Origin: Myxococcota bacterium
GTDB lineage: Bacteria; Myxococcota_A; UBA796; UBA2385
NCBI GenBank assembly: GCA_942491145.1
Contig: CALOBC010000038.1
Location: 34,130 to 98,129 of the forward strand
DNA length: 64,000 nt
Direction: 5' to 3'
This document shows positions 10,020 to 25,933 of the stretch, piece by piece (position 1 is the stretch's first letter; each line of letters opens with the position of its first letter). Both the position numbers and the translations under genes were made by a program. The notes beneath the pieces are model-generated. The model saw nothing but the letters and a program-made list of their open reading frames with translations. It ran no database searches and had not been told where the DNA came from.

Positions 10020-11192
10020 TCAGGGGTAGAAGCCGCTATACGTCACGAGATCGCGGGACTCCACGGGGGAGCCGTCGTCCGCTTCGTCGACGGTCTTGAC
10101 CAGCCCGAGGCCACGCACGTACCAAGAAGTCGACAGGCCATCGCGGTTCAAGTAGCCGCCGGTGTCGGTCATGCTGTAGTCGTTTTCGACTTGGATGGCC
10201 GAGAAGGTGCCCGCAGACGTCGACACACTCACGGGGCCGACCACCGTGAAGGTGCCGCTGGCCGTCAGCTCGTTGTAGCCGAGGGTGTCGGTCGCCACGT
10301 ACGCGTAGGTCCAGCTGTTGCTGGCGATCAAGTCGCCTTCGGCCAACAGGTCGGTGCGGGATGTCGTGTAGGTGGTGGTCATCAGCGGAATGCCGCCCAG
10401 GACCAGGTCCCAGGTGCCCACGCTGATCTGGCCGGCGTCACACACGCGGGACTCGATCACATCAAAGGCGGTGCCCGCGAGGTCGTTGTAGTTGCGGTTG
10501 TAGGTGGCGACGCCGGTGCTCGCGTCCCACGCCGGCGTTGTGATGGTCTCGGAGTAGACCGTGCCCTCGAGGGTGGTGTCGAAGATCCGCGTGGCCGCCG
10601 CGCCGTTCTCCAGCGGGAAGAACGGGTTGCAGTGGCCGCCCTCGTCGACGTCGCCGTCGCAGTTGTTGTCGACCCCATCGACCACTTCGGGCGCTCCTGG
10701 GTAGGAGTTGGCATCGCCATCGTTGCAGTCTTCGCCCTCACACTCGGTGCCGTCAATGCCGTCGCCGTCGCAGTCACAGTCGTCGGAGACCTCGGAACAG
10801 TCGTTGTCGAGGCCGTCGTAGCAGACCTCACGAATGCCGGGTCGCACGTCCGGGTTGTCGTCGTCACAGTCTCCGGCTTCGACGGTCACCCCATCGCCGT
10901 CATTGTCGGTGTCGGCATCTGCATCGGCGTCCGCATCGGCGTCCGCATCGGCGTCTGCATCGGCGTCCGCATCGGCGTCTGCATCGGCGTCCGCGTCTGC
11001 ATCGGCGTCCGCGTCTGCATCCGCATCGGTGTCACTGTCGGCGTCCGCATCCGCATCGGCGTCCGACTCGACACCGGAGTCTTTGTAGAGCGATCCCACG
11101 TTGCCGCCGCCACAAGCGGACATCAGGAGGATGGCGGGCCACAGCAGCCGGGAGCTGCCAACGGGTGACAATGGCGAAGGGGACGGGGTCAT
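10020..11192 (-). CDS. Lipoprotein with (Ala-Asp)n linker, MopE-like putative metal-binding repeats and a beta-rich C-terminal domain
   Basis: Lipobox MSAC; [23 protein letters not shown] and [26 protein letters not shown]; C-terminal [13 protein letters not shown]...[10 protein letters not shown]. Confidence 0.8.
10911..11064 (-). repeat. Imperfect 6-bp tandem repeat encoding a poly-(Asp-Ala) linker
   Basis: GCATCG/GCGTCC units, in frame within the lipoprotein. Confidence 0.95.
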
Positions 11193-11345
11193 GGGGGCTC
11201 CGAGGCCTCTGGATGCAGCCACAGGTCCACGCGTTGCCTTGCAACGGCACCACGCATCCTTGGGGTTGCGGCCACTAACGCCCCAGCCGGCCGGCTTCAC
11301 GTCGGCTGCAATCACGGCGATGACCCCGCGAGGGGCCCACTGGGC

Positions 11346-12107: not shown

Positions 12108-12359
12108 TTCGGGCGAACCTTCGATCTTTGGTCTGCAGCCAGCCGGTCGTGGATCCGTTGTTGAAGGGTGAAGCTCCCGCAGTTCGCGGGCGTGTGCCAC
12201 CGACCTCTTTTCCTGATCCGTGCGCAGCAGCTCTGCCGTGGCGGCATGTGCACCTCGCTCTGAACATCCCCCTTGTTTCGCGGTGGGTGGGCGCTGAGGT
12301 GGGCCACATGGCGGGCCGATGTGGACCTGCCGGGCGGAAACCTGAACTGGAGAGCCCCA

Positions 12360-14324
12360 ATGGTCCAGCGGAGTGATGTTGTGGGACAGCCCAACCCGAC
12401 GCTGGAACCCTTCGCGGCGTTCTTGGAAGCGCGGGTGCAGACGTCGGTGGAGACCACGCTGGTGGAGCTGGTGGACGGCTGCCTGCGCCTGCGTGGCCCC
12501 CTGGCCCTTCGGGGTGCCACACTCGACGAGATTGAAGAGTTGGACGCCATTTCCGGCGGAGTGCGGCTGCGTGTGCGGGACACCGTCATGGAGCTCCGGG
12601 GCTGTGGCGCGGCCTGCCTCGGGATGTTGTTGGCGTCGGCCTTGCCGGGGCGGTTTCCGACCTTTCCAGGGATCGATCTGGAGGCGGGCGAGCGTGTCTT
12701 GGCAGGTGGCCCGGCCCAGCTGGGCAAGGATGGCGTGTTGGAGGGCGTTGTGGTGCTCTCCAGCTCGCGTTTGCGCTCCTTCATCTGGCCGCCGGATCCC
12801 TTTGCGACAGGCCCGCAAGCGGCCCATCTCGAGCTCCGGCGGGGCACCATCGTGCGCTGTTGGTCCGATTGTGGGCCCGAGACCGTCCATGTGGACGGCG
12901 GCGCTGGGCACGTCCACACGTTTGTGGGTCCGGCTGCTGCGCTGATCCACCTGGGCCTGATTGGACCGGCGGTGCCGTTGTTGGCGCTGGTCGCGACCCG
13001 TGTGCTGGGCTTGGTCGGTGTGCCGGGACTGTTGATGCTCGGCGACCGTGAGCTGGTGCACATTCCCACGGGGGCCCTCGACAAGCTGCCCGGTGTGGGC
13101 CCGGTTCGAGTGGCCCTGCCGGATGTGGCGGAGGTGACCGCTGCGGGGGCCTCCGATGGGGGCATGGTGACGGTGGCCAGCCCAGCGGGTCGCATGCGCT
13201 TTCGGGTGCCCGTGATGCGGGTGTTTGCCAGCTTGCTGCGAGAGCGCATGGAGCAAGATCTGGAGGGCGCGGTGGTGGTCCGCAAGCCGACGGCACCGCC
13301 CCCGAAGGTGGATGCAGATGCGGAGGACGGCGAACCGGCAGAGGTGGCGGCCCCCGTGGATCTGGCGGTCTCGGGCGCCTGTCTCACCGTGGCGCGGGGC
13401 CAGTGGCGCTTCGGCACGTTGGTGCTGCGGCAGCACGCGGTCCTGTTCCAGCCGCGCCCGGGCGCGGAGTCTGGCGTCATTCGGATACCGGTGTCAGTTG
13501 TAACCCGTACTCGTGCCGGACCCCAGAGCTTGCTGCTGCGGTCCGCGGACCGGCGGCTGCCCTTCTTCGTGGCCGACGTGGCCTTTGTGGACCGGTACTG
13601 GGCGGATGCCCGCACACCGGACCGGATCTACACCCCGAAGGACCAGAATTCGCGCATCATGCGGCGCATCTCGGGGGTGCAGCGCATGGTCAAGGTCTGG
13701 GCTGGCGACGACCTGTACCTGTCCGAGCTGGAGGTGCCGGTGCGGCTGGGCGAGCTGGGCGTGTCGCTGCGGCTGCCGGGCCGGTTTCAGGATGCGCCGG
13801 AGCCGGGCACCCTCATCCGCGTGGAGGTGTTTCACGCTGACGGCATCTTTGAGTTCACCAGTCGCTTGGAGGCCCGCCAGGTGGGCACACCCGACCCCTC
13901 TCGCGGGGAGGTGGGCGCCCGACACGCGCTGGTGCTGGACATGCCGACCACCGTGCGACGGTTCGACAAGCGCCAAGACCGCCGGCTGCAGGTCTATGCA
14001 CCGATGCGGATCGCACGGAAGCAAGTGCCCGAGGGCGGCCGCCAGCTCTTGCTCGGCTTGACCCACAACATCTCCCCGGGAGGCTGCGCCTTGCAGACCC
14101 GGACCCCGCTGGAAGTGGGTGAAGACCTTTCGTTTGTGGTGATGCTGGAAGACGAGCTGCTGGAGTTTGAGGGTGAGGTCATCCGCAAAGCATCCGACCA
14201 TGGGCTGTGGGGCATCCGGTTCACGGAGGTGTCGGGAATCAGCCTGACACGGCTGCTGCGGTACGCCCGAGAGCAAGAGCGCGAGGCCCTCGCCCGGGAC
14301 CGCAACGAAGACACCCTGTTGTAG
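12360..14324 (+). CDS. PilZ domain protein with N-terminal PH/GRAM-like beta domains
   Basis: RQDRR (RxxxR) and NISPGG ([D/N]xSxxG) c-di-GMP motifs, preceded by a YcgR-N-like segment (GIFEFTSR); GGAG upstream of ATG 12360. Confidence 0.8.
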   Translation: MVQRSDVVGQPNPTLEPFAAFLEARVQTSVETTLVELVDGCLRLRGPLALRGATLDEIEELDAISGGVRLRVRDTVMELRGCGAACLGMLLASALPGRFPTFPGIDLEAGERVLAGGPAQLGKDGVLEGVVVLSSSRLRSFIWPPDPFATGPQAAHLELRRGTIVRCWSDCGPETVHVDGGAGHVHTFVGPAAALIHLGLIGPAVPLLALVATRVLGLVGVPGLLMLGDRELVHIPTGALDKLPGVGPVRVALPDVAEVTAAGASDGGMVTVASPAGRMRFRVPVMRVFASLLRERMEQDLEGAVVVRKPTAPPPKVDADAEDGEPAEVAAPVDLAVSGACLTVARGQWRFGTLVLRQHAVLFQPRPGAESGVIRIPVSVVTRTRAGPQSLLLRSADRRLPFFVADVAFVDRYWADARTPDRIYTPKDQNSRIMRRISGVQRMVKVWAGDDLYLSELEVPVRLGELGVSLRLPGRFQDAPEPGTLIRVEVFHADGIFEFTSRLEARQVGTPDPSRGEVGARHALVLDMPTTVRRFDKRQDRRLQVYAPMRIARKQVPEGGRQLLLGLTHNISPGGCALQTRTPLEVGEDLSFVVMLEDELLEFEGEVIRKASDHGLWGIRFTEVSGISLTRLLRYAREQEREALARDRNEDTLL

Positions 14325-14470: not shown

Positions 14471-15793
14471 TCAGTCCGGCAGGGGGAGGATCCACGGGGC
14501 GTGGGTCCATGAATGGCGGGCCTGGCGGGACAGATCCACCGTCGGGTCGATGAGCGGCGCGGGCGGTCGGCCGTTCAAGGACACCCGGTGGTCGACGTAC
14601 ACCGCGATCGTGTGCCCTTCGGCTTCAGCGTTGGTCCTCAGTCGCTTGGCGAGCAGCCAGATCATGTCGGGTTGGCCGATGATGGTGAGGCGCTGACGGT
14701 CCGAGAGCACGGCGCGCACATCGACCTCGGTGCTGTCGCCGCTGGTGAGGTCCACCGCGCGGAAACCCAGGGTGCCTCGCTTGGTGCGGAGCATCATTCT
14801 CCACGCGAACCGGTGGCCTTCTTCCGTCCATGACGGGCGCCCGGGGTAGGCGAGGTGCCGCAGGGGGACGACCACCTGAACGCCGATCCACAGGGCAGTT
14901 CCGGCGACGATGGCACGCGAAGGGGCTGCGCCCCGGACTGGAGCATGGGGGGCCCACCGGAGCACCCGCCGGGGCCAGCCCGGGTCGAGGAAGAGCAGAT
15001 GGGCGGCAAGCATCACGAGCGGGAAGATGCCAATGCGGAACAGCACGCCGTTGACGACGTGAAAGGCGCTGAGCGCAAGGATGGCGCCCATGCGCAGCCT
15101 CTTGGACAACAGCGCTGGGGCAACCAGCAAGTCCAGCACCAGCCCGGCGGCACTCATGGCCATGGCGGTCGGCGCCCACGCGAGCCAGGGGCCCACCCCA
15201 GGCCAGTCTTGACGGGCGTCGAGCCACATGCCGAGCGGCTGCCCGCTCAACCAGTCGGGGTTCAGCTTGGCCAGCCCGGCGAAGACATAGACCAGCACGA
15301 TGGAGATGCGCAGCATCCACAGACCGTGGGCCCGGGCCGGCGGTGGGGGGCTTCTCCAGCGGCGGTCGAGGCTGAGCACATGGTCGCAGGGGCTCAGCGC
15401 GAGCTCAACGCAGACCATGACCAGCAACACGTCGTGGTTGAGGTAGGCGGCTTGGTCCAGCAACAACAACCAGGCCAGCACCCCGGCGGTGAGACCGAGG
15501 GCGATCCGGGCGCCCAAGCCGAGCGCAATGGCGATGCCGAGGGCGGAGAGGCCCAGGTGGACGAGCACCATCGCGGCCAGGGACAAGGGCCGGAGGGCGT
15601 CGAGGTGGGGGTAGGGAAACGGCGGGAACGCCGGATCGTAGAGGGAGGCGATGCCCCCGCTGGCGATGATGCCCAGCGGCGCGACGGTCAGCAGCACGCC
15701 GAGCATGATCCGAAACACCGCAAGGGATGCGGGATCGAGTGGCCCACCGATGTTCTGCTCGATGGCGCTGGCGGTGGTGGAGACGTGCGACAT
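14471..15793 (-). CDS. HTTM domain protein, vitamin K-dependent gamma-glutamyl carboxylase homologue
   Basis: SLAVFRIMLG, YLNH, CDHVLSLD, YVFAGLAKLNPDWLSG, FRIGIFP, WTEEGHRFAWRMML; start at MSHVS. Confidence 0.88.
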   Translation of the reverse strand: MSHVSTTASAIEQNIGGPLDPASLAVFRIMLGVLLTVAPLGIIASGGIASLYDPAFPPFPYPHLDALRPLSLAAMVLVHLGLSALGIAIALGLGARIALGLTAGVLAWLLLLDQAAYLNHDVLLVMVCVELALSPCDHVLSLDRRWRSPPPPARAHGLWMLRISIVLVYVFAGLAKLNPDWLSGQPLGMWLDARQDWPGVGPWLAWAPTAMAMSAAGLVLDLLVAPALLSKRLRMGAILALSAFHVVNGVLFRIGIFPLVMLAAHLLFLDPGWPRRVLRWAPHAPVRGAAPSRAIVAGTALWIGVQVVVPLRHLAYPGRPSWTEEGHRFAWRMMLRTKRGTLGFRAVDLTSGDSTEVDVRAVLSDRQRLTIIGQPDMIWLLAKRLRTNAEAEGHTIAVYVDHRVSLNGRPPAPLIDPTVDLSRQARHSWTHAPWILPLPD

Positions 15794-15846
15794 GGGGGTG
15801 TGGGCGGGTATCTTGGCGGTCGATGCGGCGCACTGGGACCCGGCGC

Positions 15847-17979
15847 TCACCAAGATGCGGCGGCACCCTCCATCAAGAACAGGGAGCCCGTCGAGCCCGC
15901 GCCGCTGGCACCCAGCCAGAAGTCGGCCAGGCCGTCGCCATTCGTGTCGCCGGCCGCGGCCATCCCCCGCCCCAGATAGTCGTATTGGTCGGCACCCTGG
16001 ATGATCAGGTCCGCCTCGTCCGGCACGGTGCGGGTGCCCCCGTCGACGCTGCCCAAGATGCCGTAGACCCGGCCCACTTCGAGCTGGTCGCCGTCGTCCC
16101 ACTTGTGGGTGGTGACGAAGACGTCCGCCAGCCCATCGCCCGAGACATCGCCGAAGGCCCCGAGGTAGCGGCCCGTGTCGTGGTCGATGGTGGTGCCGAT
16201 GATGCGCCAGTGGGCGTCGCTCAGCGCGAGGTTGTCCCCGACGGTGCCCGAGCCCAGCGCCACATAGGCTGCCCCGGCATCCTCCAGGTCCAAGCCACCG
16301 TGGTCATAGCTGGGCGCACCGATGAGCACGTCATCATAGCCGTCCCCGTTGACGTCGCCGGCCCCCCGCAGCGCCGTCCCTGCCCGCTCCTGTTCTTCGA
16401 CCCCGTAGAACATGGGCATCTCTTCGAGGACCACAGGGTCCGCAAAGTCCTGGGCGGGGACCCTGTAGATCTCTCCACCGTTGCTGGTGGCATAGTCGGC
16501 GTAGGGCGCGCCGAGAACAACGTCCAGTGCGCCATCTCCGTCCATGTCACCGGCGGCCGCCATGCTGTAGCCGAGCTGGTCGTAGCTGGAGATGGCGTTC
16601 GTCACGACCATGTCGGCTTCGGTGCCCCCACCGGGAATCAACGTCACCGAGCCTTGGCTGGGACCCACCCGGTCGTCCCGGCGGGCGGACACCAGCACAT
16701 CGTCGAGGCCATCGCCAGTGACATCGCCCACGGCTACGCTGTCGTAGCCCCAGTAGGCATCGGTGTGGGAGAAGGTCGACGTGAACAGCGCGGCGCCGAC
16801 GGTCGTGCTGTTGTCGTCGGTGGAGAGGATGTAGACCTCACCGGTCTTGCTGTGGCTGTCGGGGGCGCCCACCACAAAGTCCTCGATGCCATCACCGTTC
16901 CAGTCGCCGATGAAGTTGAGCGCGTAGCCAAAGGCCCCATCCACGGCGGATCCGGTCCAGGTGCGCACCAGCGGCTCGTCCGGCCACTGGGTGCGGTCCC
17001 CCACGCCCACCGAACCGGGGAAGTACCCCACCCGGCCTTCGTCGAGGAGGGCTGCGGCCGGCGCGCTGACCAACACCTCGTGAATACCGTCGCCATCGAC
17101 ATCCTTGCTGGCCATGAACATCGAAAACGAGCCGTTGTCGAAGCCGATCCAGCCGCCCAGCATGTCTTCGGCGAGCACCACGTCGGGGGTGCCATCGCAG
17201 TTGCTGTCCACGGGGTCGTTGTAGTCGAGCCGGTGGGGGTGGATGTTGGGGTCGGTGTCGTCGCAGTCGCCAGACACCGCGGCCCCCTCGGGCAAGCTCG
17301 GGCAGAACAGGCCGATCTCGACGTCGGTGCCATACTCGTCGCCGTCGAGGTCCTGGTAGAGCGGAAGCTGGCTGAAGGGGTCGACGTCGTCGTCCTCGTC
17401 GTCCACCAGCCCGTCGCAGTCGTTGTCGATCGCGTCGCAGACCTCGTCGGCCGCCGGGTGGCGCAGCCAGTCTGTGTCGTCGCAGTCCGTGCCCTCGGGC
17501 ACCGCGCCGGTCACGTCCCCACACGCATCGATGGCTGCGCCGGGATCGCCCGCACCATCGCCATCTTGGTCGAGGTACCAGACCGCGCCGGGGTAGCGGG
17601 TGCTGTCGAGGTCATCGCAGTCGCCGTCCGTGGTCAAGTGGCCCATCGGGCGCAAGCACCCGGTCACCGCAGCGGCGCCATCCCCCAGGCCGTCGCCGTC
17701 GCCGTCGGGGTACCAGACTTGGCCGGGATGCTGCTCGGGATCGGTGTCGTCGCAGTCGTCGGCGTTGCTGGTGAAGCCCTCGGGCACGGTGCAGGACTGG
17801 GCCACGACGAAGGGATCACCCGCGCCGTCCCCGTCGGCATCGGCGTAGAAGCTGGACGGGGTGCACGGGGAGTCGTCGGTGGTCGGGTCCTCGGTTGTGG
17901 CCTTGCCGGAGTCGGTCCCACAAGCCGTCGTTCCGAGGGCCACTGCCCCCAGTGTGACCATCCAGAGTGCGCTGTTCAT
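15847..17979 (-). CDS. Lipoprotein with MopE-like repeats and FG-GAP (integrin-alpha-like) propeller
   Basis: Lipobox TTAC; repeated WYxDxDGDGxG...DCDD units; repeated GDxxGDGxxDhhhGAP motifs. Confidence 0.88.
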   Translation of the reverse strand: MNSALWMVTLGAVALGTTACGTDSGKATTEDPTTDDSPCTPSSFYADADGDGAGDPFVVAQSCTVPEGFTSNADDCDDTDPEQHPGQVWYPDGDGDGLGDGAAAVTGCLRPMGHLTTDGDCDDLDSTRYPGAVWYLDQDGDGAGDPGAAIDACGDVTGAVPEGTDCDDTDWLRHPAADEVCDAIDNDCDGLVDDEDDDVDPFSQLPLYQDLDGDEYGTDVEIGLFCPSLPEGAAVSGDCDDTDPNIHPHRLDYNDPVDSNCDGTPDVVLAEDMLGGWIGFDNGSFSMFMASKDVDGDGIHEVLVSAPAAALLDEGRVGYFPGSVGVGDRTQWPDEPLVRTWTGSAVDGAFGYALNFIGDWNGDGIEDFVVGAPDSHSKTGEVYILSTDDNSTTVGAALFTSTFSHTDAYWGYDSVAVGDVTGDGLDDVLVSARRDDRVGPSQGSVTLIPGGGTEADMVVTNAISSYDQLGYSMAAAGDMDGDGALDVVLGAPYADYATSNGGEIYRVPAQDFADPVVLEEMPMFYGVEEQERAGTALRGAGDVNGDGYDDVLIGAPSYDHGGLDLEDAGAAYVALGSGTVGDNLALSDAHWRIIGTTIDHDTGRYLGAFGDVSGDGLADVFVTTHKWDDGDQLEVGRVYGILGSVDGGTRTVPDEADLIIQGADQYDYLGRGMAAAGDTNGDGLADFWLGASGAGSTGSLFLMEGAAASW

Positions 17980-19331
17980 CGGCTCTCCAGCAGGGACAGC
18001 ACCGGGTCGGCGCGATAGTCAGCGACGTCGTCCTCCACCCCGATGCTGTGGAGCAGGCTGCGGGCGATGTGTTCATTCGTGAGGACTTCACCCGATGCCG
18101 CCACGGTGCCCGTGGAGAGGTCCACCGGCTGGGCTTGCATGCCGAGATCGGTGGTCCTGCCGATGATCTGGCCGCCCCGGATGCCGCCGCCCAGCAGCAC
18201 CATCGCGTTGACAAGGTTGTGGTCTCGGCCGCCATTGCTGTTCAAGGCCGCTTCCCGGGCGAACTCGCTGAGGCAGACGATGGTCGTGTGGTCCAGCCAA
18301 TTGTCGCCGGCATCCCCAAAAAATGGTGTGGCGGCGAGCTGGGTGGCGAGGGCGGCCACACTGTCGAAGCCTGCGCGCAAGTTGGGCCCATGGTCGCTCT
18401 GCCACTGGGCGCCGGCGTGGGTGTCCAGATCGCCGGTGGCCTCGAAGCTCACGCACCTCGACACGCCGTGGGTGAGCGCTTGGGCGGCCATCAAGGCCCG
18501 GGGACCCCCTTCGCCGGTGGTGCCCGAGTCCACGCCGAAGACTTCCCGCAAGGTCCGCATCTCGGCGCTGGCGGCGCTCAGGTCGAAGGTGGCCGCGATG
18601 TCGAGGTCGACGATGCTCCGGGCCGTCCGCCGATTGGCATAGATGTCGAGGGCACGGGGGGAGCTCGTGCGTGACTCCTGATTGGCGAAGAAGGCTTCCA
18701 GAGCAGCCCTCTGACCCTCGCCCACCGTCGTCGCGCCCGGGGAGAGCGCCTCGTAGAGGTCGTCCACCGACTCGGTGCCCAGGCCTGACGCCCAAGACGG
18801 GTGGCCCAAATTGAAGGACGGCATGCCACACACCAGGTTGGGGATCGGCTCGGACTCCCCCAGCAGTGCGGCCAGCAGCGTGGCCACCGACGACGCCCGG
18901 ACGGACGTGCCGGCGGGCTGCACACCGGTGAAGGCGTGGCGGCGGGCGACCTCGTGGGCAACGGAGCCCATCGTCATGCCCCGGACCACCGCGAGGCGGC
19001 TGGCGTGCTGGGCGAGATCCCCGATGAAGGGGCCGAAGGTCATGCCGGGCACGTCGGTGTCCACCAGCCAGTTGGCGGGATCGAGGTTGTCGACGGTGTC
19101 GTAGGCGGGCTCAATGCCGGTGTCGGCCCCCCGGCCGGTGGGGAAGTCGTCGGGGCTGCGGGGATCGAGGCCCAGCAGCATGTCCCAGCCGCCCTGAAAG
19201 TAGGCGAACACAAAGTAGCGGTCGGTCACCGTGGGCGTGGCCGCGCGCAGCCGCCGGGGAAAGCCACCGAGGCCGGCCAGCAGCCCACCGCCGGCCGCCA
19301 GCTCCAGGAATGTGCGTCGGGGGATGTGCAT
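17976..19331 (-). CDS. DUF1501 domain protein with Tat signal
   Basis: PRRTFLELAAGG twin-Arg signal; YFQGGWDMLLGLDP, DLDTH, LSEFARE, GGRDHN, LLGGGIRGGQIIG. Confidence 0.85.
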   Translation of the reverse strand: MHIPRRTFLELAAGGGLLAGLGGFPRRLRAATPTVTDRYFVFAYFQGGWDMLLGLDPRSPDDFPTGRGADTGIEPAYDTVDNLDPANWLVDTDVPGMTFGPFIGDLAQHASRLAVVRGMTMGSVAHEVARRHAFTGVQPAGTSVRASSVATLLAALLGESEPIPNLVCGMPSFNLGHPSWASGLGTESVDDLYEALSPGATTVGEGQRAALEAFFANQESRTSSPRALDIYANRRTARSIVDLDIAATFDLSAASAEMRTLREVFGVDSGTTGEGGPRALMAAQALTHGVSRCVSFEATGDLDTHAGAQWQSDHGPNLRAGFDSVAALATQLAATPFFGDAGDNWLDHTTIVCLSEFAREAALNSNGGRDHNLVNAMVLLGGGIRGGQIIGRTTDLGMQAQPVDLSTGTVAASGEVLTNEHIARSLLHSIGVEDDVADYRADPVLSLLESR

Positions 19332-19394
19332 GGGGGCCTCATGCTGGGGGAAGCGCACCACTCGTCGGACCGCCCGGGGGGCCACCGACGAGGG

Positions 19395-20072
19395 TCAGTA
19401 CATGAAGAAGTCGGGATGGGTGAACAGCGCCACACACACGGTCTGCCACGCGAGATCGGTCGAGTCGGTGCGTCGGTAGACCGTGGCAAACAGGTCCGCG
19501 GCGTCATCAATCAAGGGGTCTGAAGTGGCACGAGAGCGTCCATGGATGCGCCATCGTAGACCCGTCACCCCCGTCCTCACGGCGTCGAGCTCTGTGGAGT
19601 CGGGATCATCGAGGGTGTCGAAGTCCCCCGATGTTGCGGCGCTCCAGCCTGCGCAGGTGTGCACCGCGGCGTCGTCGAGGAACTTCTGAAACAGCACCGA
19701 GGGCGTGCGGTCGGTGGTCGTGCGCGTCTGGAAGTCCGCCACCCCCAGCGTCGCGGCGTACCGGTCCCAGTCGGAGCGCTCGTCGTCCCCCCAGACCACA
19801 CCCCCCGCGATGACCTGCATCGAGTCGCGGACTTGTGGGACGGTCATCCGCTTGCGCTGTCGGCGGTGGCTGGGCGGGCTGGCGGGCGCGGGCACCGGGA
19901 CTCCGTCGCCCAGGCTGGCATCGGGAAGGCTCTCTTCATCAATGTTCTCGATGGGACTGTCATCCCCAGGCTCGGTCGCCTTGCCCCCGCTGGATCCGGT
20001 CCCGCAGCCCATGATCGCCGCGCTTGCGAGCAGGGTGAGCCGCAGTGCCCTTGTGTCGTTGGGCCCGCTCAC
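19395..20072 (-). CDS. Lipoprotein resembling the DUF1587 and DUF1592 parts of DUF1592-family proteins
   Basis: Lipobox IMGC; RKRMTVPQVRDSM; C-terminal VCVALFTHPDFFMY; GTGA coupling to the upstream gene. Confidence 0.55.
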   Translation of the reverse strand: MSGPNDTRALRLTLLASAAIMGCGTGSSGGKATEPGDDSPIENIDEESLPDASLGDGVPVPAPASPPSHRRQRKRMTVPQVRDSMQVIAGGVVWGDDERSDWDRYAATLGVADFQTRTTTDRTPSVLFQKFLDDAAVHTCAGWSAATSGDFDTLDDPDSTELDAVRTGVTGLRWRIHGRSRATSDPLIDDAADLFATVYRRTDSTDLAWQTVCVALFTHPDFFMY

Positions 20073-21583
20073 TCCGCACCGTCCCAGTAGGACGCGCTGC
20101 GCACGACCCTGCGTACCAGCGCCCGGTAGTCCTCATCGGCATCAAAGGCCGCCGCCCAGTCCTCGATGTCTTCGTCCCGGGGCTCGGCGTCCAGCAACCA
20201 GTCGGTGGTCTTCGTGACCGCACACGTCGCGAGGGTGCCGTCCGCCCGCATCCGGTCGGTCCACCCCTGGGGCCCCTCGTCGGGATGCAACCCCTTGTCG
20301 CCCACCAAGAAGGCGTAGGGCCTCAGCACGCCCACGTAGGGGTCTTCGTCGGGATGGCTGGACTCGACGATGTAGTGGTCTTCGCACACGTCCGGGCAGC
20401 CCTCGGCGCTGTCGGCGCAGGTGGCACACACCGCGCTGAGCTCGGGAAATTCGTCGGGGGCCAGGTGGCGAGAGCCCGCTTGGGCCCACCGTCCCCAGTA
20501 CGCCGCCCAAGGCTCCAGTCGGGCGTGGCAGTCCCGGCACCCGCTGCGCACTTGCAGGTTCGGGGTCGGCAGCGTCCCCTCGGTCACCGGGTCCACGGGG
20601 CCCTCGGTGGGCAAGAATTCGGCGCACAAGAAGCCACCATAGAAGCGGTTGGCCCGACCCCGGTTGGTCTGGTGGCGCAGCAGCCATCCCGGCGCGGTGA
20701 GCACCCCCCGGCGGTGCTCGGGCAGGGTCACGGCGACGAAATTCGGGTCGCCATAGTCCAGCAGGGGAATGTCGGAGACATCGACTGGCACGTCATAGTC
20801 ATCGGTTCGGAACGCAGCCAGGTGGCGGAAGAAGTGGGCCGATGCGCCGTTGAGGTAGAGGGCATCGCCCGAGAACAGTGTGGTGTAGGGCGCCCCAGAG
20901 TCGAGCAGGGCCCGCACCCGGTGGTCGATGTCGGCCGCGAGCGCCGCTTCGATGGCGTCTTCCACGTCATTGCTGGCGCACCACTGCAGCGCCGGGCCAC
21001 ACCCGCAGCTCGCGTCGGTCTGGCCGGCTTCGGTGGCACAGTCGACGCCGGTGGTGGACACCGCGCTGAGCTGGGCGTCCAGCGCGCACACTTGGATGGG
21101 GGTCTCGGGGTCCCAGTAGGGCGCGACCCAGACCCAGCCCTCGGACCGGGTGCCGTCGGGGTTGGTCCGCCACGACAGCGGCCGGTTGTCCTCGTCCACC
21201 ACCGCTTCAGCCTCACCACAGTGCGCTTGGTTGGCCCCCCGCAGCGTCCGGGCCCGGGCGGAGGTGTAGTAGATGCCGCTGCGCCGGCTCAGGCGGCGGG
21301 CGTTGAGCAGCGTCAGCGACAGCGTGTTCCAGAACCGCTCTTGGTGCTCACCGACCACAATCTCGGTGAAGGCGGGCGCGGCCAGCCACGCGTCGAGGGT
21401 TGTGTCGTCCAGCTCGCCGGCGGCTTCGATGACCTCGAGCTCAGCGGCCGACGGCACCACACCCCGCACGTCCAGGGACACCGCACGCACGTAGCCGTGG
21501 AGGTCCTGGCCCGCGGCATCGGACCAGGGGTCGTCGGCGCCGGCCAGCACCATGACCAGGGGCATCAGAGCAACGCGTCTCAC
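20069..21583 (-). CDS. Cys-rich DUF1549/DUF1588/DUF1585-like protein with one CxxCH
   Basis: YVRAVSLDVRGVVPS, RRGVLTAPGWL..TNRGRANRFYGGFLC, CRDCHARLEP, YRALVRRVVRSASY; GTG start at 21583 overlaps the upstream TGA. Confidence 0.65.
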   Translation of the reverse strand: MRRVALMPLVMVLAGADDPWSDAAGQDLHGYVRAVSLDVRGVVPSAAELEVIEAAGELDDTTLDAWLAAPAFTEIVVGEHQERFWNTLSLTLLNARRLSRRSGIYYTSARARTLRGANQAHCGEAEAVVDEDNRPLSWRTNPDGTRSEGWVWVAPYWDPETPIQVCALDAQLSAVSTTGVDCATEAGQTDASCGCGPALQWCASNDVEDAIEAALAADIDHRVRALLDSGAPYTTLFSGDALYLNGASAHFFRHLAAFRTDDYDVPVDVSDIPLLDYGDPNFVAVTLPEHRRGVLTAPGWLLRHQTNRGRANRFYGGFLCAEFLPTEGPVDPVTEGTLPTPNLQVRSGCRDCHARLEPWAAYWGRWAQAGSRHLAPDEFPELSAVCATCADSAEGCPDVCEDHYIVESSHPDEDPYVGVLRPYAFLVGDKGLHPDEGPQGWTDRMRADGTLATCAVTKTTDWLLDAEPRDEDIEDWAAAFDADEDYRALVRRVVRSASYWDGAE

Positions 21584-22983
21584 AGGAAGCCCCCATGCTT
21601 CCAGGCCCGAATGGCCACGATGTTGTCCTCGGACAGCGACGGTCCGCCGAGGGGCATCTCGCCCGTGCTGACCAGCGCGATGATGGGGTCGATGTGGGCC
21701 CGCCAGGCGTCGGCCGAGTCGAGCCGTGTGGCCGTGTCGCCGCCGTGGCAAGCCGCGCAGTGGGCCGTGTGGATGGTGGCCACGTCGTCCCAGGTCACGT
21801 CCGGCAGGTCACCCACCCAGAGGGCTTGGGTGGAGATGTGGTCGCCCAGCGGAGACGTGGTCACAAAGCGCAGGGTGTGGTCCGGGCCCATGAGCCCCTC
21901 GGGATCGAGGGTGACCCGGTGGGGATCGGTCTTCAGCACCAGGCGCTGGTCGTCCACCCACACGGTCATGGTGGTGAGGGAGGCGGGGTCTGTGGGCAGC
22001 AGCTGCACGTCGGCCCGGGTCTGCAGCGAGGGGGGCAGGCCGACCACCGCGACCGGGCGGCCGAGGGCGTGGCGGACAAGGGCACCGTCGTGGAGCTGAA
22101 GCAAGCGACCGAGGGCATCCACGCCGATCACGGGGCCATCGGGCAGCGGCGTGGACACGAAGCTGTGGCCGTCGAGGTGGAACGCCGTGGTGGGACCGAT
22201 GGCCCACAGCGCGGGGCCCACAAGCTGGGTCACGGGCGCGGGAAGGACCACAGGCACGGCCAGACCTTCCCCGTCCACCCGATGAAGAGTGTCGTCGACA
22301 ATGGTCCACAGCACGCCATCTTCGTCGGTGGCGAGGGCTTGGAGTGGGGCGTCTCCTGCCCACAGTGTCTGAAGCTCGGGCCCCCGGCGGATGGCGACCA
22401 GCTGGGGCACCGACAGGTAGAGCATGTCGGCGGTGGCCGCGAGCGCATAGATGGTGGGATGGCCGTCGAGCAGCACCTCTTGGATGGTGTCCCCCGCCAC
22501 TTGGAACAGCCGCCCGGCGCCGGCCAGCCAGGGGGTGCCCCCGTGCTGAGCGAGGGCCTCGACCGGCACCGGAAGGCCCAGGTTGAGTGCGCTGACAACA
22601 CCGTCCTGAAGGGCATAGACGGCCCCATCGAGCGCGACCCAGGTCTCGCCCTCCACCACCATGGCCGCCAGAGACTGGGCATCGCTCAGGGCGGTGTGCA
22701 GCCCGGTGCTCTCGTCGACCAGCACGACGGTGTCGCCCTGTTGGCACAGCATCTGGTGGGCCACGATGGACGCGGCCCCGTCGCAGGCGGCGATGGTCTC
22801 GGTGAGGGCTGTCGTAGGGGAGATGGGCGGGCTGAAGACGACGGCGTCATGGGCGGTGTCGGTGGGCGAGACCCCCGAGTCTGAGCCCGTGGTCTTGGGG
22901 CCCGGGGACGCGCAGCCACAGAGCACGGCCAGGCAGATGGGGATGGGCAAGCGCGACACGGGGCCTCCCCTCCGGGCGGACAT
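21580..22983 (-). CDS. Lipoprotein with propeller-like repeats and a C-terminal class I cytochrome c domain
   Basis: Lipobox VLCGC; HCAACH heme motif with distal Met in GEMPLG and terminal IRAW. Confidence 0.75.
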   Translation of the reverse strand: MSARRGGPVSRLPIPICLAVLCGCASPGPKTTGSDSGVSPTDTAHDAVVFSPPISPTTALTETIAACDGAASIVAHQMLCQQGDTVVLVDESTGLHTALSDAQSLAAMVVEGETWVALDGAVYALQDGVVSALNLGLPVPVEALAQHGGTPWLAGAGRLFQVAGDTIQEVLLDGHPTIYALAATADMLYLSVPQLVAIRRGPELQTLWAGDAPLQALATDEDGVLWTIVDDTLHRVDGEGLAVPVVLPAPVTQLVGPALWAIGPTTAFHLDGHSFVSTPLPDGPVIGVDALGRLLQLHDGALVRHALGRPVAVVGLPPSLQTRADVQLLPTDPASLTTMTVWVDDQRLVLKTDPHRVTLDPEGLMGPDHTLRFVTTSPLGDHISTQALWVGDLPDVTWDDVATIHTAHCAACHGGDTATRLDSADAWRAHIDPIIALVSTGEMPLGGPSLSEDNIVAIRAWKHGGFL

Positions 22984-23185: not shown

Positions 23186-25933
23186 TCAGTTGGCGATCGA
23201 CTCGGGGGCAGTGACGCTCAAGCCGACCGTGGCGGCCGGGCCGACCACACCGGCGCCGACGAGGGCCGTGGCTCCACCGACGAGGGAGCCGCCGATGAAG
23301 GTGCCGTTGGCGAGGGCGGCCTCGAGGGTGTCGTCGACCGCCGCGCCGAGGACCACGCCTTCGGCAGGGAAGATGGGCTCACCGAGGTATCCGAGGGGGC
23401 TGCTGGCGAGCCCGGCCCCGCCGGTGACGGCCGGGGGAATGGTGATGTCGGTGCCGGAGAAGCCGAGGGGGCTGCTGGCAAGCCCGGAGCCGCTGACCAT
23501 GACCACGGACAGGTCGCCGAGGCCGAGCAAGCCGAGGGGGCTGCTGGCGAGTCCGCCGCCGCTGAAGGTCGCCTCATCGAAGTCGAGGTCGAGGACCGGC
23601 ACCACACCGAGGGGGCTGCTGGCGAGTCCGCCGCCGTCGAGGTCGAGGCTGACGGTGTTGGCCGTGGTGCCCGGAGGCAGGGCATCGATGCCGAGCACGA
23701 CACCCAGCGGGCTGCTCGCGAGACCGGCGCCCCAGTCGACGAAGGCGTAGGACGCAGCCATGTCGCCGAGGACGGGGTCGGTGCCGGCGTCCCATGCGAT
23801 GCCCAGCAAGGAGTCGGCGAGGTCGGTGTCCGCGGCGATGGCGGCCTGGAGGTAGGCGAGACCGTCGGTGGCGAACATGAGGGAGGTGGGGTGGTGGCCG
23901 ACATCATCGACGACGGCGGTGGTGACCTGGACGGCGAAGGCGCCGTTGTTGCCGGTGGATGAGGAGACTCGACCCCAAGGCGTCATCGTGCAGGTGCCGT
24001 TGGTGTCGGTGGTGCAGGTCTCCGCCGATGGGGACTCTCCGTGTTTCCATGCTTGGGCGTAGACCCGGGCGCTGGACACGGGGTTGCCATCGCTGTCCAC
24101 CACGGCGATCTCGAAGGATGGCGCGAGGCGGCTGCCCCGGGAGTCCATCCATGGCAGCACGCTGGTGTACAGCGGGCCCACCGCGGTGGGGAGGTCGTTG
24201 TCTTCGACGGCCTCCAGGCTCTCTTCGATGTCGAGCTCGCCGCTGCCGCAGCCGTTGCTCCAGCAGTTCTTGTCGACCCGCTGGGCCCCGACTTGAAGGG
24301 CCGCCACCACATCAAAGGGGGAGGCGCCCGCCGCGAGCAGCTGTGCGGCGGTGCCGCTCACGAGTGCGGCGGCCTGGCTGGTGCCGGCGTAGCTCCAGAG
24401 GCCGAAGCTGGTGGGGGCGGTGGGCGAGTAGGTCTCGGCGACCACGCCGTCTCCGTGGCCGTTGCGGTCCTGGTCTTCGTCGTTGTCCCCGCCGGCTGCC
24501 ACGATGTCGATGGCGAGGCCCCGGTTGGAGTAGTCGGTGACGTCGCCGCGGTGGCTGATGTTGGAGTTGTGCAGCGTGGTGGCACCGACGGCCACGACGT
24601 AGGGGCTGGCGGCGGGCCACAGCACCGTGGTGCCGCTGTCATTGCCGGCGGCGGCCACCATGACGATGCCGGCGTCCCGGGCGGCCGCGAGGGCGGCGTT
24701 CAGCGCTTGGGAGGGCAGGTAGTCTGCGCCGAAGGTGAGGCTCAGGTTGATGATGCTGGCGCCGTTGTCGATGGCGTGCCACAGCCCCTCGATGAGGTCC
24801 AGCTCGGTGCCGGAGTTGTTGGCGTCGAGCACCCGCACGGGCATCACGCTCACCCCGGGTGCGATGCCGAAGGCGCTGTCTTCACCGGCGATGAGGCTGG
24901 TGATGTGAGTGCCGTGCTGGTGGTCATCTTGGGGGGTAGCATCCCCGTCGATGATGTCGGATGGCGACACGATGTTGAGGTTCGCCAAGCTGGGGGCGGC
25001 CGATGCGCCCGATGCGGTGAGGGCGAGGCCGCTGTCGAGCACGGCCACGATGATGGAGGCGTTCGAGATGGGATCGGGCCCGAGGCCCAAGTTGCTGGAC
25101 CGCTGGCTCCAGTGGGGGTGCTGGCTGTGCTCCAGGTGCCACTGGTAGCCGGCGGTGGTGGCGACAGTGCTCGCGGCGGCGGCGGCCTCGACGTCGAGTG
25201 CTGCCAAGTCTGCCTGAGCGACGGTGAGGGCGGACTGGGCGTCGGTCAGTGCTGCGTCCGTGGTGTCCACCCGCAGGGCGGCCTCGTCGAAGGCGTCGAC
25301 CCATGCCTGGAGCGCGGTCCCGGTGAGGCCGTCGTCCATGGCGTCTTCCAGGTCCTCATCGGCTTCGTCGAAGGTGTCCTGGGCGTCGTTGAGCGCGTCG
25401 GTGGCCGACTCGACGTCCAGCTCCGCTTGGCTGACCGCGTCCTCGGCGGCGCTCAGGCCGGCCTTGAGCACACTCAGATCGGTGGACGCACCCTGCACCC
25501 GTCCCTGGGTGGACAGGGCCACGACGTCTGGGTCGCTCTTGAGGGCCTGGCGAGACTGGGCGATGCGCTCGACGGGCAGCTTCAGTCCGGCGAGGCCCGA
25601 CCGGCCGATGGCGCGAGAGACGGAGGCCCCGTGGCGGGCGGCGAGTGCCTGAAGGTCTGTCCCCGGGGTCACCTTCACCATGACCTCGTCGAGGATCCAG
25701 CTGGTCTCGGCGCGGGAGGCGGGCGCCTGACCGATGGCGCTGTTGCCGCTGCGGGTGGCGAGGGTGTTGCTGCCATGGGTGCTGCCGCTGGACCCGTGGT
25801 TGAAGTGAACAGTGTCCACGGCACCGGGTGGTCCGCCGGATGGCGCTGGATCATCGACGAGCTGGGTGCCCCCCAGTGTGGCGAGGCCAACAAGGGCGAG
25901 GGCGGCGGCGGCGTTCCGGGTCGTGGGCTTCAT
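23186..25933 (-). CDS. S8 (subtilisin-like) serine peptidase with coiled-coil insert and C-terminal GLASSPLG repeats
   Basis: Triad VAVLDSG, HGTHI, GTSQAA; oxyanion AAAGND; I9-like prodomain (DEVMVKV); N-terminal signal or anchor. Confidence 0.9.
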   Translation of the reverse strand: MKPTTRNAAAALALVGLATLGGTQLVDDPAPSGGPPGAVDTVHFNHGSSGSTHGSNTLATRSGNSAIGQAPASRAETSWILDEVMVKVTPGTDLQALAARHGASVSRAIGRSGLAGLKLPVERIAQSRQALKSDPDVVALSTQGRVQGASTDLSVLKAGLSAAEDAVSQAELDVESATDALNDAQDTFDEADEDLEDAMDDGLTGTALQAWVDAFDEAALRVDTTDAALTDAQSALTVAQADLAALDVEAAAAASTVATTAGYQWHLEHSQHPHWSQRSSNLGLGPDPISNASIIVAVLDSGLALTASGASAAPSLANLNIVSPSDIIDGDATPQDDHQHGTHITSLIAGEDSAFGIAPGVSVMPVRVLDANNSGTELDLIEGLWHAIDNGASIINLSLTFGADYLPSQALNAALAAARDAGIVMVAAAGNDSGTTVLWPAASPYVVAVGATTLHNSNISHRGDVTDYSNRGLAIDIVAAGGDNDEDQDRNGHGDGVVAETYSPTAPTSFGLWSYAGTSQAAALVSGTAAQLLAAGASPFDVVAALQVGAQRVDKNCWSNGCGSGELDIEESLEAVEDNDLPTAVGPLYTSVLPWMDSRGSRLAPSFEIAVVDSDGNPVSSARVYAQAWKHGESPSAETCTTDTNGTCTMTPWGRVSSSTGNNGAFAVQVTTAVVDDVGHHPTSLMFATDGLAYLQAAIAADTDLADSLLGIAWDAGTDPVLGDMAASYAFVDWGAGLASSPLGVVLGIDALPPGTTANTVSLDLDGGGLASSPLGVVPVLDLDFDEATFSGGGLASSPLGLLGLGDLSVVMVSGSGLASSPLGFSGTDITIPPAVTGGAGLASSPLGYLGEPIFPAEGVVLGAAVDDTLEAALANGTFIGGSLVGGATALVGAGVVGPAATVGLSVTAPESIAN
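23390..23725 (-). repeat. Five in-frame copies of GLASSPLG separated by 24-, 17-, 15- and 16-aa spacers
   Basis: The copies differ only at synonymous positions, e.g. GGT CTC GCG AGC AGC CCG CTG GGT versus GGA CTC GCC AGC AGC CCC CTC GGC. Confidence 0.95.

Follow-up and report, generated by a model that had tools for sequence, protein, structure and literature searches.

In this study, we show that a minus-strand gene in a 64,000-nucleotide stretch of DNA from a Myxococcota bacterium (the whole stretch analysed, hereafter the window) is a true bacterial homologue of the animal vitamin K-dependent carboxylase (GGCX) and looks intact. It is a further member of the known and widespread bacterial family combining an HTTM with a VKGC lumenal domain, and is referred to here as the HTTM gene. 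With a probability of roughly 0.68, we read its product as a minimal enzyme of the vitamin K-dependent carboxylase type whose gene has been relocated, and its adjacency to the gene of an acidic FG-GAP/MopE-motif lipoprotein as incidental and not as that of an enzyme-substrate pair. The features of the region are listed in Table 1.

Table 1. Features around the HTTM gene, in window positions
Feature	Position	Strand	Description and basis
Convergent PilZ-domain ORF	12273..14324	plus	Pfam, GC3 phase; ends the minus-strand run 146 bp past the HTTM stop
HTTM gene (GGCX core)	14471..15793	minus	440 aa; first ATG 15793, stop 14471 (ORF listing and translation); 9-TM HTTM plus small periplasmic 'lumenal' domain (clamp A equivalent)
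Spacer, FG-GAP stop to HTTM ATG	15794..15846	minus	53 bp; sequence inspection
FG-GAP/MopE-motif acidic lipoprotein	15847..17979 (stop included)	minus	710 aa; Pfam, composition
DUF1501 protein	17976..19385	minus	Twin-arginine signal; probable start 19334; stop overlaps FG-GAP start
225-aa lipoprotein	19395..20072	minus	Without Pfam family; conserved cassette member
~500-aa protein, one CxxCH	20069..21577	minus	Faint PSCyt2/DUF1549 hint (E 0.12); conserved cassette member
467-aa lipoprotein, C-terminal cytochrome c domain (CAACH)	21580..22983	minus	First gene of the conserved cassette

Pfam assigns residues 18-273 of the HTTM protein to HTTM (PF05090, E 3.5e-58, 197.7 bits against a cut-off of 27.7) and residues 294-439 to VKGC_lumenal_dom (PF22777, E 4.8e-41, 140.7 bits, cut-off 27.7). 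The genome reveals ten HTTM matches, and this gene alone carries a match to the lumenal domain. The GC3 phase plot agrees with the frames of both the HTTM gene (in-frame GC3 0.83-0.92) and the FG-GAP gene. Compared with a 98% identical conspecific metagenome contig, 14 synonymous and 8 non-synonymous differences give a dN/dS of 0.20. Relatives of the protein are 98%, 57% and 50% identical among the matches listed, and of these three the metagenome scan recovered the 98% one only; identity is at most 47% to any genome copy and 57% to one metagenome protein.

The earlier note had taken the gene for a GGCX homologue that keeps an NH (YLNH) and a Lys (AGLAKL) motif, equivalent to the region of His160 and Lys218. 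Both motifs are present in the translation (Y117-L118-N119-H120 and A172-G173-L174-A175-K176-L177), and the homology is borne out by Pfam, phmmer, a 31-sequence alignment and superposition of the model. The phmmer search against human GGCX chains (PDB) gave an E value of 6e-30 and placed H120 on His160 and K176 on Lys218; residue equivalences were mapped by hand from the printed alignment, with an offset of +31 for the truncated construct. The AlphaFold (AF2) model of the HTTM protein has a pLDDT of 92.2 and a pTM of 0.90. Foldseek matched it to human GGCX with E 1.7e-23, TMq 0.85 and TMt 0.59 (target-normalised TM-score 0.53-0.59), and the VIA superposition of model residues 5-440 on human 42-507 reached Z 32.7 and an rmsd of 2.9 Å over 425 residues at 27-28% identity.

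Concerning the active site, whose residue roles follow the available parts of PMC12589487 and PMC12647623, the HTTM protein keeps N159, H160, V210, A214, K218, D222, W223, G259 and D263 of GGCX, and further F286, N290, F294, F299, T391, W399, M401, M402 and R436. Seven residues are invariant in the 31-homologue alignment (N119, H120, K176, W181, F244, F257, W331) and five more are at least 90% conserved (D180, G217, D221, H245, F252). The catalytic base Lys218 is present together with Trp223 and Asp263 (as K176, W181 and D221). The naphthoquinone/isoprenyl pocket, as described in the available part of PMC12589487, is also retained: Phe286, Phe294, Val210, Ala214, Gly259, Asn290 and Met401 correspond to F244, F252, V168, A172, G217, N248 and M333. 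At the site of the Glu carboxylate and CO2, N119, H120 and F257 are kept and invariant in the 31 homologues, and Tyr395 is replaced by His327, a position occupied by His in 35/72 and by Tyr in 31/72 homologues. The position of Arg436 varies within the family (Arg in 9/72, Glu in 31/72). Asn158, Lys217 (Ala here), Tyr379, Ser398, His404 and Tyr425 (Glu356 here) are not kept. Because of the change of Tyr395 to His and these other substitutions, the carboxylase chemistry may differ or be absent. The Cys99-Cys450 disulfide, which according to the available part of PMC12589487 ties the lumenal to the membrane domain in GGCX, is missing; the phmmer alignment has F59 and R384 at these positions.

The HTTM protein stops where human GGCX has residue 507. 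Since its model matches GGCX 42-507, it is without clamp B and the C-terminal domain, and thus without one side of the two-sided propeptide cleft (clamps A and B as defined in the available part of PMC12647623). Without this cleft, substrate recognition in the animal way would not be possible.

A whole-genome scan found VKOR matches on two other contigs only, so that none lies in the window, in agreement with the earlier observation. In both genes the VKOR domain is joined to DsbA/thioredoxin domains; one of the two carries FGE-sulfatase and Redoxin domains as well. Fusions of the VKOR-DsbA type are usually interpreted as DsbB-like enzymes that form disulfides. Two MqnA/MqnD-family matches (futalosine, menaquinone) are found in the genome, one of them with a UbiA-type prenyltransferase about 2 kb away; no classical MenA was detected in this genome, which is 92.7% complete. 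We know of no Gla-domain substrate for the HTTM protein. The enzyme would consist of the transmembrane core, cap, LL9 loop and clamp A of GGCX (human ~42-507) and would bind menaquinol in the inner membrane. Lys176 would deprotonate the quinol, and its reaction with O2 would create a strong base at the periplasmic face. The target of this base may be a carboxylate-bearing group which Asn119, His120 and His327 hold in place beside a putative CO2 site at Phe257. The outcome would be an epoxidase and probably a carboxylase reaction on some periplasmic substrate.

Related HTTM genes lie in other surroundings. No FG-GAP neighbour was seen in 80 distant, 20 same-order, 33 metagenome and 28 phylum loci (0 in each set; one of the 33 metagenome loci is conspecific at 98% identity, and its contig begins inside the HTTM gene, leaving the upstream side outside it). 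Likewise, none of these approximately 160 related loci has a clear DUF1501-cassette neighbour, and in 26 genomes searched for both, HTTM and cassette co-occur twice against 1.9 times expected by chance. Linkage of HTTM with FG-GAP and DUF1501 loci is therefore not conserved, an outcome which the earlier note had named as refuting its inference. Relatives of the gene follow imelysin/di-haem oxidoreductase genes or, within this order, have tamB as their immediate upstream neighbour. Among the 80 distant and 20 same-order loci, imelysin occurs within 5 kb in 48/100 and a TonB receptor in 40/100; tamB is immediately upstream in 11/100, all 11 belonging to the same-order loci. Imelysin is present in 26 of the 28 phylum loci. 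Within the literature searched, the imelysin-HTTM and TamB-HTTM linkages are apparently not discussed. The window itself was considered as a diverged imelysin/DHOR/TonB/TamB locus, and this was rejected since profile HMMs of the neighbour clusters matched nothing in it. Neighbour cluster 'c6', downstream of the tamB-linked copies, was discarded as a partner, as it consists of Arg-rich wrong-strand ORFs over a real conserved gene.

A tree built with a quick method from 71 of 101 rows (30 were dropped for length, and several rows were badly extracted) places the HTTM gene of the window as sister to a tamB-linked copy (SH-aLRT 97) and outside the imelysin clade (37 rows, support 99). Its end branch measures 1.18 as compared to 0.59 for the sister copy. 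At the genome's own tamA-tamB locus, the Omp85, TamB and convergent Metallophos orthologues are kept and HTTM is missing: TamB and Metallophos are 2 bp apart with nothing between them. By parsimony, this suggests that the place of the HTTM gene behind the FG-GAP/MopE gene is a rearrangement specific to this genome. Independent acquisition is a possible alternative to relocation from tamB, and a lineage-specific recruitment in this one genome is possible as well.

The enzyme may also be a quinol oxygenase/epoxidase or quinol-linked redox component which carboxylates no protein and serves the envelope in trans, either in TamAB outer-membrane biogenesis or in metal uptake together with a lone imelysin-TonB pair. 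We regard this as rather unlikely. It is in line with the family's conserved partners, which are envelope systems (imelysin, di-haem oxidoreductase, TonB receptor, TamB) and not Glu-rich proteins, and with the genome's own imelysin-TonB receptor pair, which stands without HTTM on contig C61 (a lone imelysin), one DHOR lying on C17. The replacement of Tyr395 by His, the poor conservation of Arg436 and the missing clamp B point in the same direction, as does a Leptospira orthologue said to be an epoxidase without carboxylase activity. In Riemerella, moreover, expression of a cluster encoding a TonB receptor, a 'vitamin K-dependent gamma-carboxylase', an imelysin and a hypothetical protein rises when iron is limiting and also in a fur mutant (PMC5609570, in the part available). 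However, the human enzyme holds the Glu carboxylate and CO2 by Asn159, His160 and Phe299, and the equivalents of these three are invariant in 31/31 homologues, which is hard to explain without a carboxylate/CO2 step.

Improbable in our view is that this minimal GGCX is a true periplasmic protein carboxylase which, without the propeptide clamp, acts on acidic metal-binding envelope lipoproteins, namely the adjacent imelysin in most lineages and, here, the newly adjoining FG-GAP/MopE lipoprotein and/or the C61 imelysin. If true, bacteria would use Gla or carboxy-Asp as a post-translational modification to adjust the binding of Ca or Fe.

The neighbouring lipoprotein shows Pfam matches to FG-GAP (6.4e-26) and Cu-binding_MopE (4.6e-19), and its lipoprotein-type signal ends at Cys20 of the lipobox; surface location and Ca binding are presumed. 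The earlier note had described it as very acidic and Asp/Glu-rich. Very acidic it is (pI 4.05), and this is due to Asp (113 of 710 residues, with 10 DxDxDG-like motifs); rich in Glu it is not (26 residues). The richest 45-residue stretch holds six Glu, EE pairs number only two, and the ExxxExC motif is missing. A propeptide and a Glu-rich Gla region, as in a cognate substrate encoded nearby, are not features of this protein. Acidic genes of this type are very numerous in the genome: a rough regex count gives ~164 stop-to-stop ORFs with MopE-like or repeated DxDxDG motifs, and the MopE Pfam model 708 first-look candidates, so that such a neighbour is not rare.

The two genes follow each other on the same strand with the 53-bp gap noted before. 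The spacer contains no obvious Shine-Dalgarno sequence before the HTTM ATG, and a terminator scan of it found nothing convincing. An in-frame GTG at 15850-15848 offers an alternative HTTM start which overlaps the FG-GAP stop (GTGA). Judged from this arrangement, the genes are probably co-transcribed; because of this and since both products face the periplasm, a functional link within this genome is possible. The lipoprotein gene is nevertheless part of a distinct unit, a cytochrome c / DUF1501 / FG-GAP cassette. Its orthologues in three other genomes (G026, G042 and G006) are 48-57% identical, and the DUF1501 protein is 62% identical to its G026 orthologue. The 467-aa cytochrome c lipoprotein was considered as a DHOR and rejected, having no match to Pfam or to our own HMM. 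In all three genomes, whose FG-GAP orthologues were the only clear ones with sequence downstream, other sequence is found there and not HTTM; two further genomes, G025 and G011 (88% and 90% complete), carry the cassette and yielded no HTTM-lumenal homologue at E 1e-20. Given that the HTTM lineage is elsewhere found behind tamB or imelysin and the lipoprotein in a separate cassette, the probable co-transcription is most likely incidental.

It had been proposed that the lipoprotein or other operon products are substrates of gamma-carboxylation; the enzyme would then carboxylate their acidic residues, Glu to Gla or Asp as in MloH, and raise their affinity for Ca or other metals. We consider this quite improbable. 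The tight co-directional spacing with its possible start-stop overlap and lack of a terminator, the periplasmic placement of both proteins by topology and signal, the extreme acidity with ten Ca-type motifs and the retained carboxylate and CO2 pocket residues are consistent with it. With MloH, moreover, carboxylation of Asp has a precedent among bacteria (as cited in PMC12647623 and bioRxiv 10.64898/2026.08.19.745780, in the parts available). Against it stand the linkage confined to this genome, the HTTM-less orthologous loci, the predominance of Asp over Glu, the missing clamp B and the abundance of acidic MopE/FG-GAP genes. The lipoprotein is an unlikely substrate because the adjacency is peculiar to this one genome.

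That the gene is a decaying remnant, stranded by the rearrangement and no longer functional, is scarcely credible. In favour of this are an end branch longer than that of its sister, the loss of the usual partners and the lack of a clear ribosome-binding site ahead of the ATG. Against it stand an unbroken frame of 440 codons, the retention of every family-invariant residue, the GC3 and dN/dS values and the confident model.

Among bacterial relatives of the carboxylase, only MloH has a known substrate, a small molecule. At first sight the locus promised a quick route to a protein substrate. In the light of the comparisons it is a poor choice for that search, because only one uncultured genome has the pairing. 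Useful leads are the pairing with imelysin, di-haem oxidoreductase and TonB receptor genes, which is Fur/iron-regulated in Riemerella, and the tamA-tamB pairing in this myxobacterial order. Both exist in organisms that permit knock-out and mass spectrometry.

Compared with known systems, the preferred reading of a minimal, relocated carboxylase-type enzyme shares with human GGCX the fold of residues 42-507 and Lys218, His160, Asn159, Asp263, Trp223, Phe286/294/299, Met401/402 and Arg436. The human enzyme has 758 residues as compared to 440, and it alone has the clamp B jelly roll and the C-terminal domain; here, the cofactor would be menaquinol, in the bacterial inner membrane. The Leptospira orthologue is held to be nearer to the animal enzyme. 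Rishavy et al. reportedly observed in 2005 that it epoxidises vitamin K without carboxylating Glu. It is thought to be horizontally acquired (PMC4555120, in the part available). MloH of Streptomyces is likewise a bacterial GGCX orthologue, which carboxylates an aspartyl residue of a small-molecule intermediate in malonomycin biosynthesis (same two sources). Compared by description only, it differs in its polyketide/non-ribosomal peptide cluster and a DUF5819-like extra region; Pfam found no PKS/NRPS domains in the 13 long ORFs between 10020 and 25933, and the extra domain here is PF22777. SdpB-type and linaridin-cluster HTTM proteins have the HTTM transmembrane domain in common with our protein; membership in the SdpB family (TIGR04033) was rejected at 18.7 bits against a cut-off of 178.4. 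The bacterial HTTM plus VKGC lumenal proteins (~430-500 aa), named 'vitamin K-dependent gamma-carboxylase' or 'HTTM domain-containing protein' at the source, share the two-domain architecture in 120/120 matches listed and have their invariant residues in common with it; that bacterial GGCX orthologues conserve catalytic residues has been reported (PMC12647623, Fig. 6b, in the part available). These relatives reside mostly in imelysin/di-haem oxidoreductase/TonB receptor clusters or behind tamB, whereas the present copy stands behind an FG-GAP/MopE gene.

The 440-aa HTTM protein is a homologue of the human vitamin K-dependent carboxylase GGCX, and its gene closes a run of minus-strand genes directly behind an acidic FG-GAP/MopE lipoprotein gene. 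All genes of this run are backed by the ORF list, the translations and the GC3 phase plot. The earlier note's observation of this arrangement is confirmed by the Pfam domains, the alignment to GGCX and the 53-bp spacer, whose length agrees with the sequence. Neither a terminator-like site (terminator scan) nor a clear ribosome-binding site was found in this spacer. The lipoprotein stop codon is overlapped by an in-frame GTG at 15850 (GTGA, 15847-15850), a possible alternative start that would add 19 residues to the HTTM protein; its use would imply translational coupling. The two genes are likely co-transcribed, as judged from the sequence.

Features of the window and gene strings of the compared loci (L numbers)
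Feature	Location	Strand	Basis or occurrence
Second MopE lipoprotein gene, 431 aa, pI 4.05	10020-11315		Pfam
PilZ-domain ORF, convergent on the HTTM gene	12273-14324	+	sequence
HTTM gene, 440 aa, last of the minus-strand run	14471-15793	-	Pfam HTTM 3.5e-58, VKGC_lumenal_dom 4.8e-41
FG-GAP/MopE lipoprotein, 710 aa	15847-17979	-	Pfam FG-GAP 6.4e-26, Cu-binding_MopE 4.6e-19
Twin-arginine DUF1501 protein	17976-19385	-	ORF list, translation, GC3 phase plot
Lipoprotein, 225 aa	19395-20072	-	ORF list, translation, GC3 phase plot
Protein of ~500 aa, single CxxCH motif	20069-21577	-	ORF list, translation, GC3 phase plot
Lipoprotein, C-terminal cytochrome c domain	21580-22983	-	ORF list, translation, GC3 phase plot
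Subtilase	23186-25933	-	ORF list, translation, GC3 phase plot
Four- to five-gene periplasmic cassette, FG-GAP protein often included	17976-22983; L139, L140, L141, L210		
tamA(Omp85)-tamB-HTTM/GGCX-core string	L115-L121, L123, L126, L133, L100		11 of 20 same-order loci, two families
Imelysin, (di-haem oxidoreductase), GGCX-core, TonB-dependent receptor cluster	L013, L015, L016, L022, L028, many others; L181-L208		

Among PDB sequences, human GGCX chains were the only phmmer matches of the HTTM protein (E 6e-30). Active-site residues were mapped by hand from the printed alignment, with residue roles taken from passages of PMC12589487 and PMC12647623. The proposed equivalents of GGCX His160 and Lys218 indeed align (H120 and K176). 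Retained are Asn159/His160 (N119/H120), Val210, Ala214, Lys218, Asp222, Trp223, Gly259, Asp263 (D221), Phe286, Asn290, Phe294, Phe299, Thr391, Trp399, Met401/402 and Arg436, and replaced are Asn158 (Leu), Lys217 (Ala), Tyr379 (Leu), Tyr395 (His), Ser398 (Ala), His404 (Arg), Tyr425 (Glu) and Cys99/Cys450 (Phe/Arg). Across 31 aligned homologues, N119, H120, K176, W181, F244, F257 and W331 are invariant, and D180, G217, D221, H245 and F252 are conserved in at least 90%. A wider alignment of 72 of 101 extracted proteins (29 shorter than 380 aa were dropped, and some rows are imperfectly extracted) gives the same picture; here the Tyr395 position holds His in 35 rows and Tyr in 31, and the Arg436 position is not conserved. 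Relative to a metagenome contig of 98% identity, 14 differences in the gene are synonymous and 8 are non-synonymous (dN/dS 0.20). By sequence, the HTTM gene encodes a GGCX homologue with a predicted intact active site.

The alignment of 31 sequences served to build an AlphaFold2 model (mean pLDDT 92.2, pTM 0.90), for which Foldseek retrieved exclusively GGCX entries at E <= 0.001 (16 chains; best match E 1.7e-23, TMq 0.85, TMt 0.59). VIA-align superposed residues 5-440 on GGCX 42-507 with Z 32.7 and an rmsd of 2.9 A over 425 residues. In the terms used in parts of PMC12647623, the HTTM protein matches human GGCX in its membrane domain of nine helices, its cap, loop LL9 and three-stranded clamp A, but has neither the clamp B jelly roll nor the C-terminal domain of the human enzyme. 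Since these two parts complete the propeptide cleft of GGCX (same source), the model suggests that a propeptide-guided, processive mechanism as in the human enzyme is not to be expected.

The earlier note had proposed the lipoprotein or other operon products as substrates of gamma-carboxylation, an enzyme-substrate operon for which comparative evidence gives no support. It is Asp (113), not Glu (26), that makes the lipoprotein acidic; the 45-residue stretch richest in Glu holds 6 of them, there are two EE pairs, and the ExxxExC motif is absent from its sequence. Acidic MopE/FG-GAP proteins are very common in the window's genome, where MopE-motif proteins form a large expansion: the MopE model gave 708 first-look candidates, with all 150 of those scored being significant, and a rough regular expression marks about 164 ORFs of this kind.

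Concerning linkage, the window's neighbour proteins were searched by tblastn against related HTTM loci. Among 80 loci from species-representative genomes, with HTTM homologues of 28-40% identity, the FG-GAP protein had no match and DUF1501 matched weakly at two planctomycete loci only. No FG-GAP match was found in 20 same-order loci, upstream in 33 metagenome loci (one of them conspecific and cut inside the HTTM gene) or in 28 further loci of the phylum, so that the FG-GAP/HTTM linkage is not conserved in any of these sets.

On the lipoprotein's side, a cassette is conserved in three other genomes (G026, G025, G011), where the cytochrome c lipoprotein gene is followed in unchanged order by those for the 500-aa protein (faint DUF1549 hint, E 0.12), the 225-aa lipoprotein and DUF1501. 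An FG-GAP orthologue (48-50% identical) directly follows DUF1501 in G026 and G042. The next gene in G026 is a convergent ORF, and no HTTM match lies within 600 bases (G042) or 1500 bases (G006) 3' of the orthologue. In each of G026, G042 and G006 a different contig carries an HTTM-lumenal gene, which is linked to tamB in G026 and G042. No HTTM match came from two genomes that have the cassette (88% and 90% complete). Of 26 genomes searched for both, 10 have the HTTM-lumenal gene and 5 the cassette; the two coincide in 2 genomes, against 1.9 expected by chance. The best reading of the adjacency in the window is a rearrangement specific to this genome; a recent recruitment in this one genome is a less likely possibility.

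Neighbour clustering and Pfam scans of 100 loci (the 80 and the 20 same-order ones) revealed other partners. Of these loci, 48 have imelysin within 5 kb of the HTTM-lumenal gene, which it directly precedes in 35; 40 have a TonB-dependent receptor, which in 37 is the next gene downstream; 28 encode an unnamed 373-aa protein, and 14 a di-haem oxidoreductase. In the 28 phylum loci imelysin occurs 26 times and the di-haem oxidoreductase 14 times. In 11 of the 100 loci, all same-order, the HTTM-lumenal gene is directly preceded by tamB on the same strand; there the HTTM match either overlaps the end of TamB or begins no more than ~75 bp from it. For the GGCX-core family, imelysin makes a likelier partner or substrate than the FG-GAP protein does. 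We found no discussion of either linkage, to imelysin or TamB, in the literature searched.

In a quick IQ-TREE phylogeny (LG+G4, 71 of 101 rows, several of them long and badly extracted) the window gene is sister to a tamB-linked copy from a genome of the same taxonomic family (SH-aLRT 97, 46-47% identity) and is not part of the imelysin-linked clade (37 rows, support 99). In a same-genus genome the copy belongs to this clade and is thus a paralogue. The window's genome retains a tamA-tamB locus (C32:16141-23139, L145) with Omp85/TamA, a TamB 36% identical to that of a relative, and the convergent calcineurin-like phosphoesterase (52% identical) that follows HTTM in relatives. No HTTM gene is present there, and the TamB and phosphoesterase ends are 2 bp apart. 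The simplest reading is that the window gene now stands last in another operon after leaving its place behind tamB, or after loss there and later regain. On contig C61 (76017-80627) an imelysin homologue, the genome's sole match to our own imelysin profile, is followed directly, without an intervening HTTM gene, by a TonB-dependent receptor.

The genome (8.7 Mb, 61 contigs, 92.7% complete) holds ten HTTM-domain matches, and only the window gene has the lumenal domain, the other nine all being without it; two of these lie 3 kb apart on contig C17 (712766, 716131), ~40 kb from a VKOR gene. Two VKOR-domain genes were detected, both on contigs other than the window's and both fused to DsbA/thioredoxin domains, one additionally to FGE-sulfatase and Redoxin domains. 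Such VKOR-DsbA/thioredoxin fusions are usually read as the bacterial disulfide-forming type and give no evidence for a vitamin K cycle. The four-part fusion, an 801-aa ORF (VKOR, DsbA/thioredoxin, FGE-sulfatase-like, Redoxin/AhpC) at C10:158080-160485 (L147:4080-6485), is an unusual architecture. Classical MenA had no match in this genome; a futalosine route to menaquinone is likely because two MqnA/MqnD-family matches are present, one ~2 kb from a UbiA-type prenyltransferase match.

The HTTM gene is a newly found member of a known, widespread bacterial family of minimal, putative GGCX-like enzymes. Among 8000 candidates scored, 620 proteins reached E <= 1e-20, and all 120 among the matches listed carry both Pfam domains; database names are 'vitamin K-dependent gamma-carboxylase' or 'HTTM domain-containing protein'. 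A Leptospira homologue is said to perform epoxidation without carboxylation, and Law and colleagues reportedly described the aspartyl carboxylation by MloH in malonomycin biosynthesis in 2018. Parts of PMC12647623 state that catalytic residues are conserved in bacterial GGCX orthologues and cite MloH as carboxylating an aspartyl residue in that pathway, and a passage of PMC4555120 mentions the Leptospira GGCX homologue. The widespread imelysin cluster also occurs in Riemerella, where it encodes, besides imelysin, a TonB receptor, a 'vitamin K-dependent gamma-carboxylase' and a hypothetical protein; according to tables of PMC5609570 its genes are induced under iron limitation and in a fur mutant.
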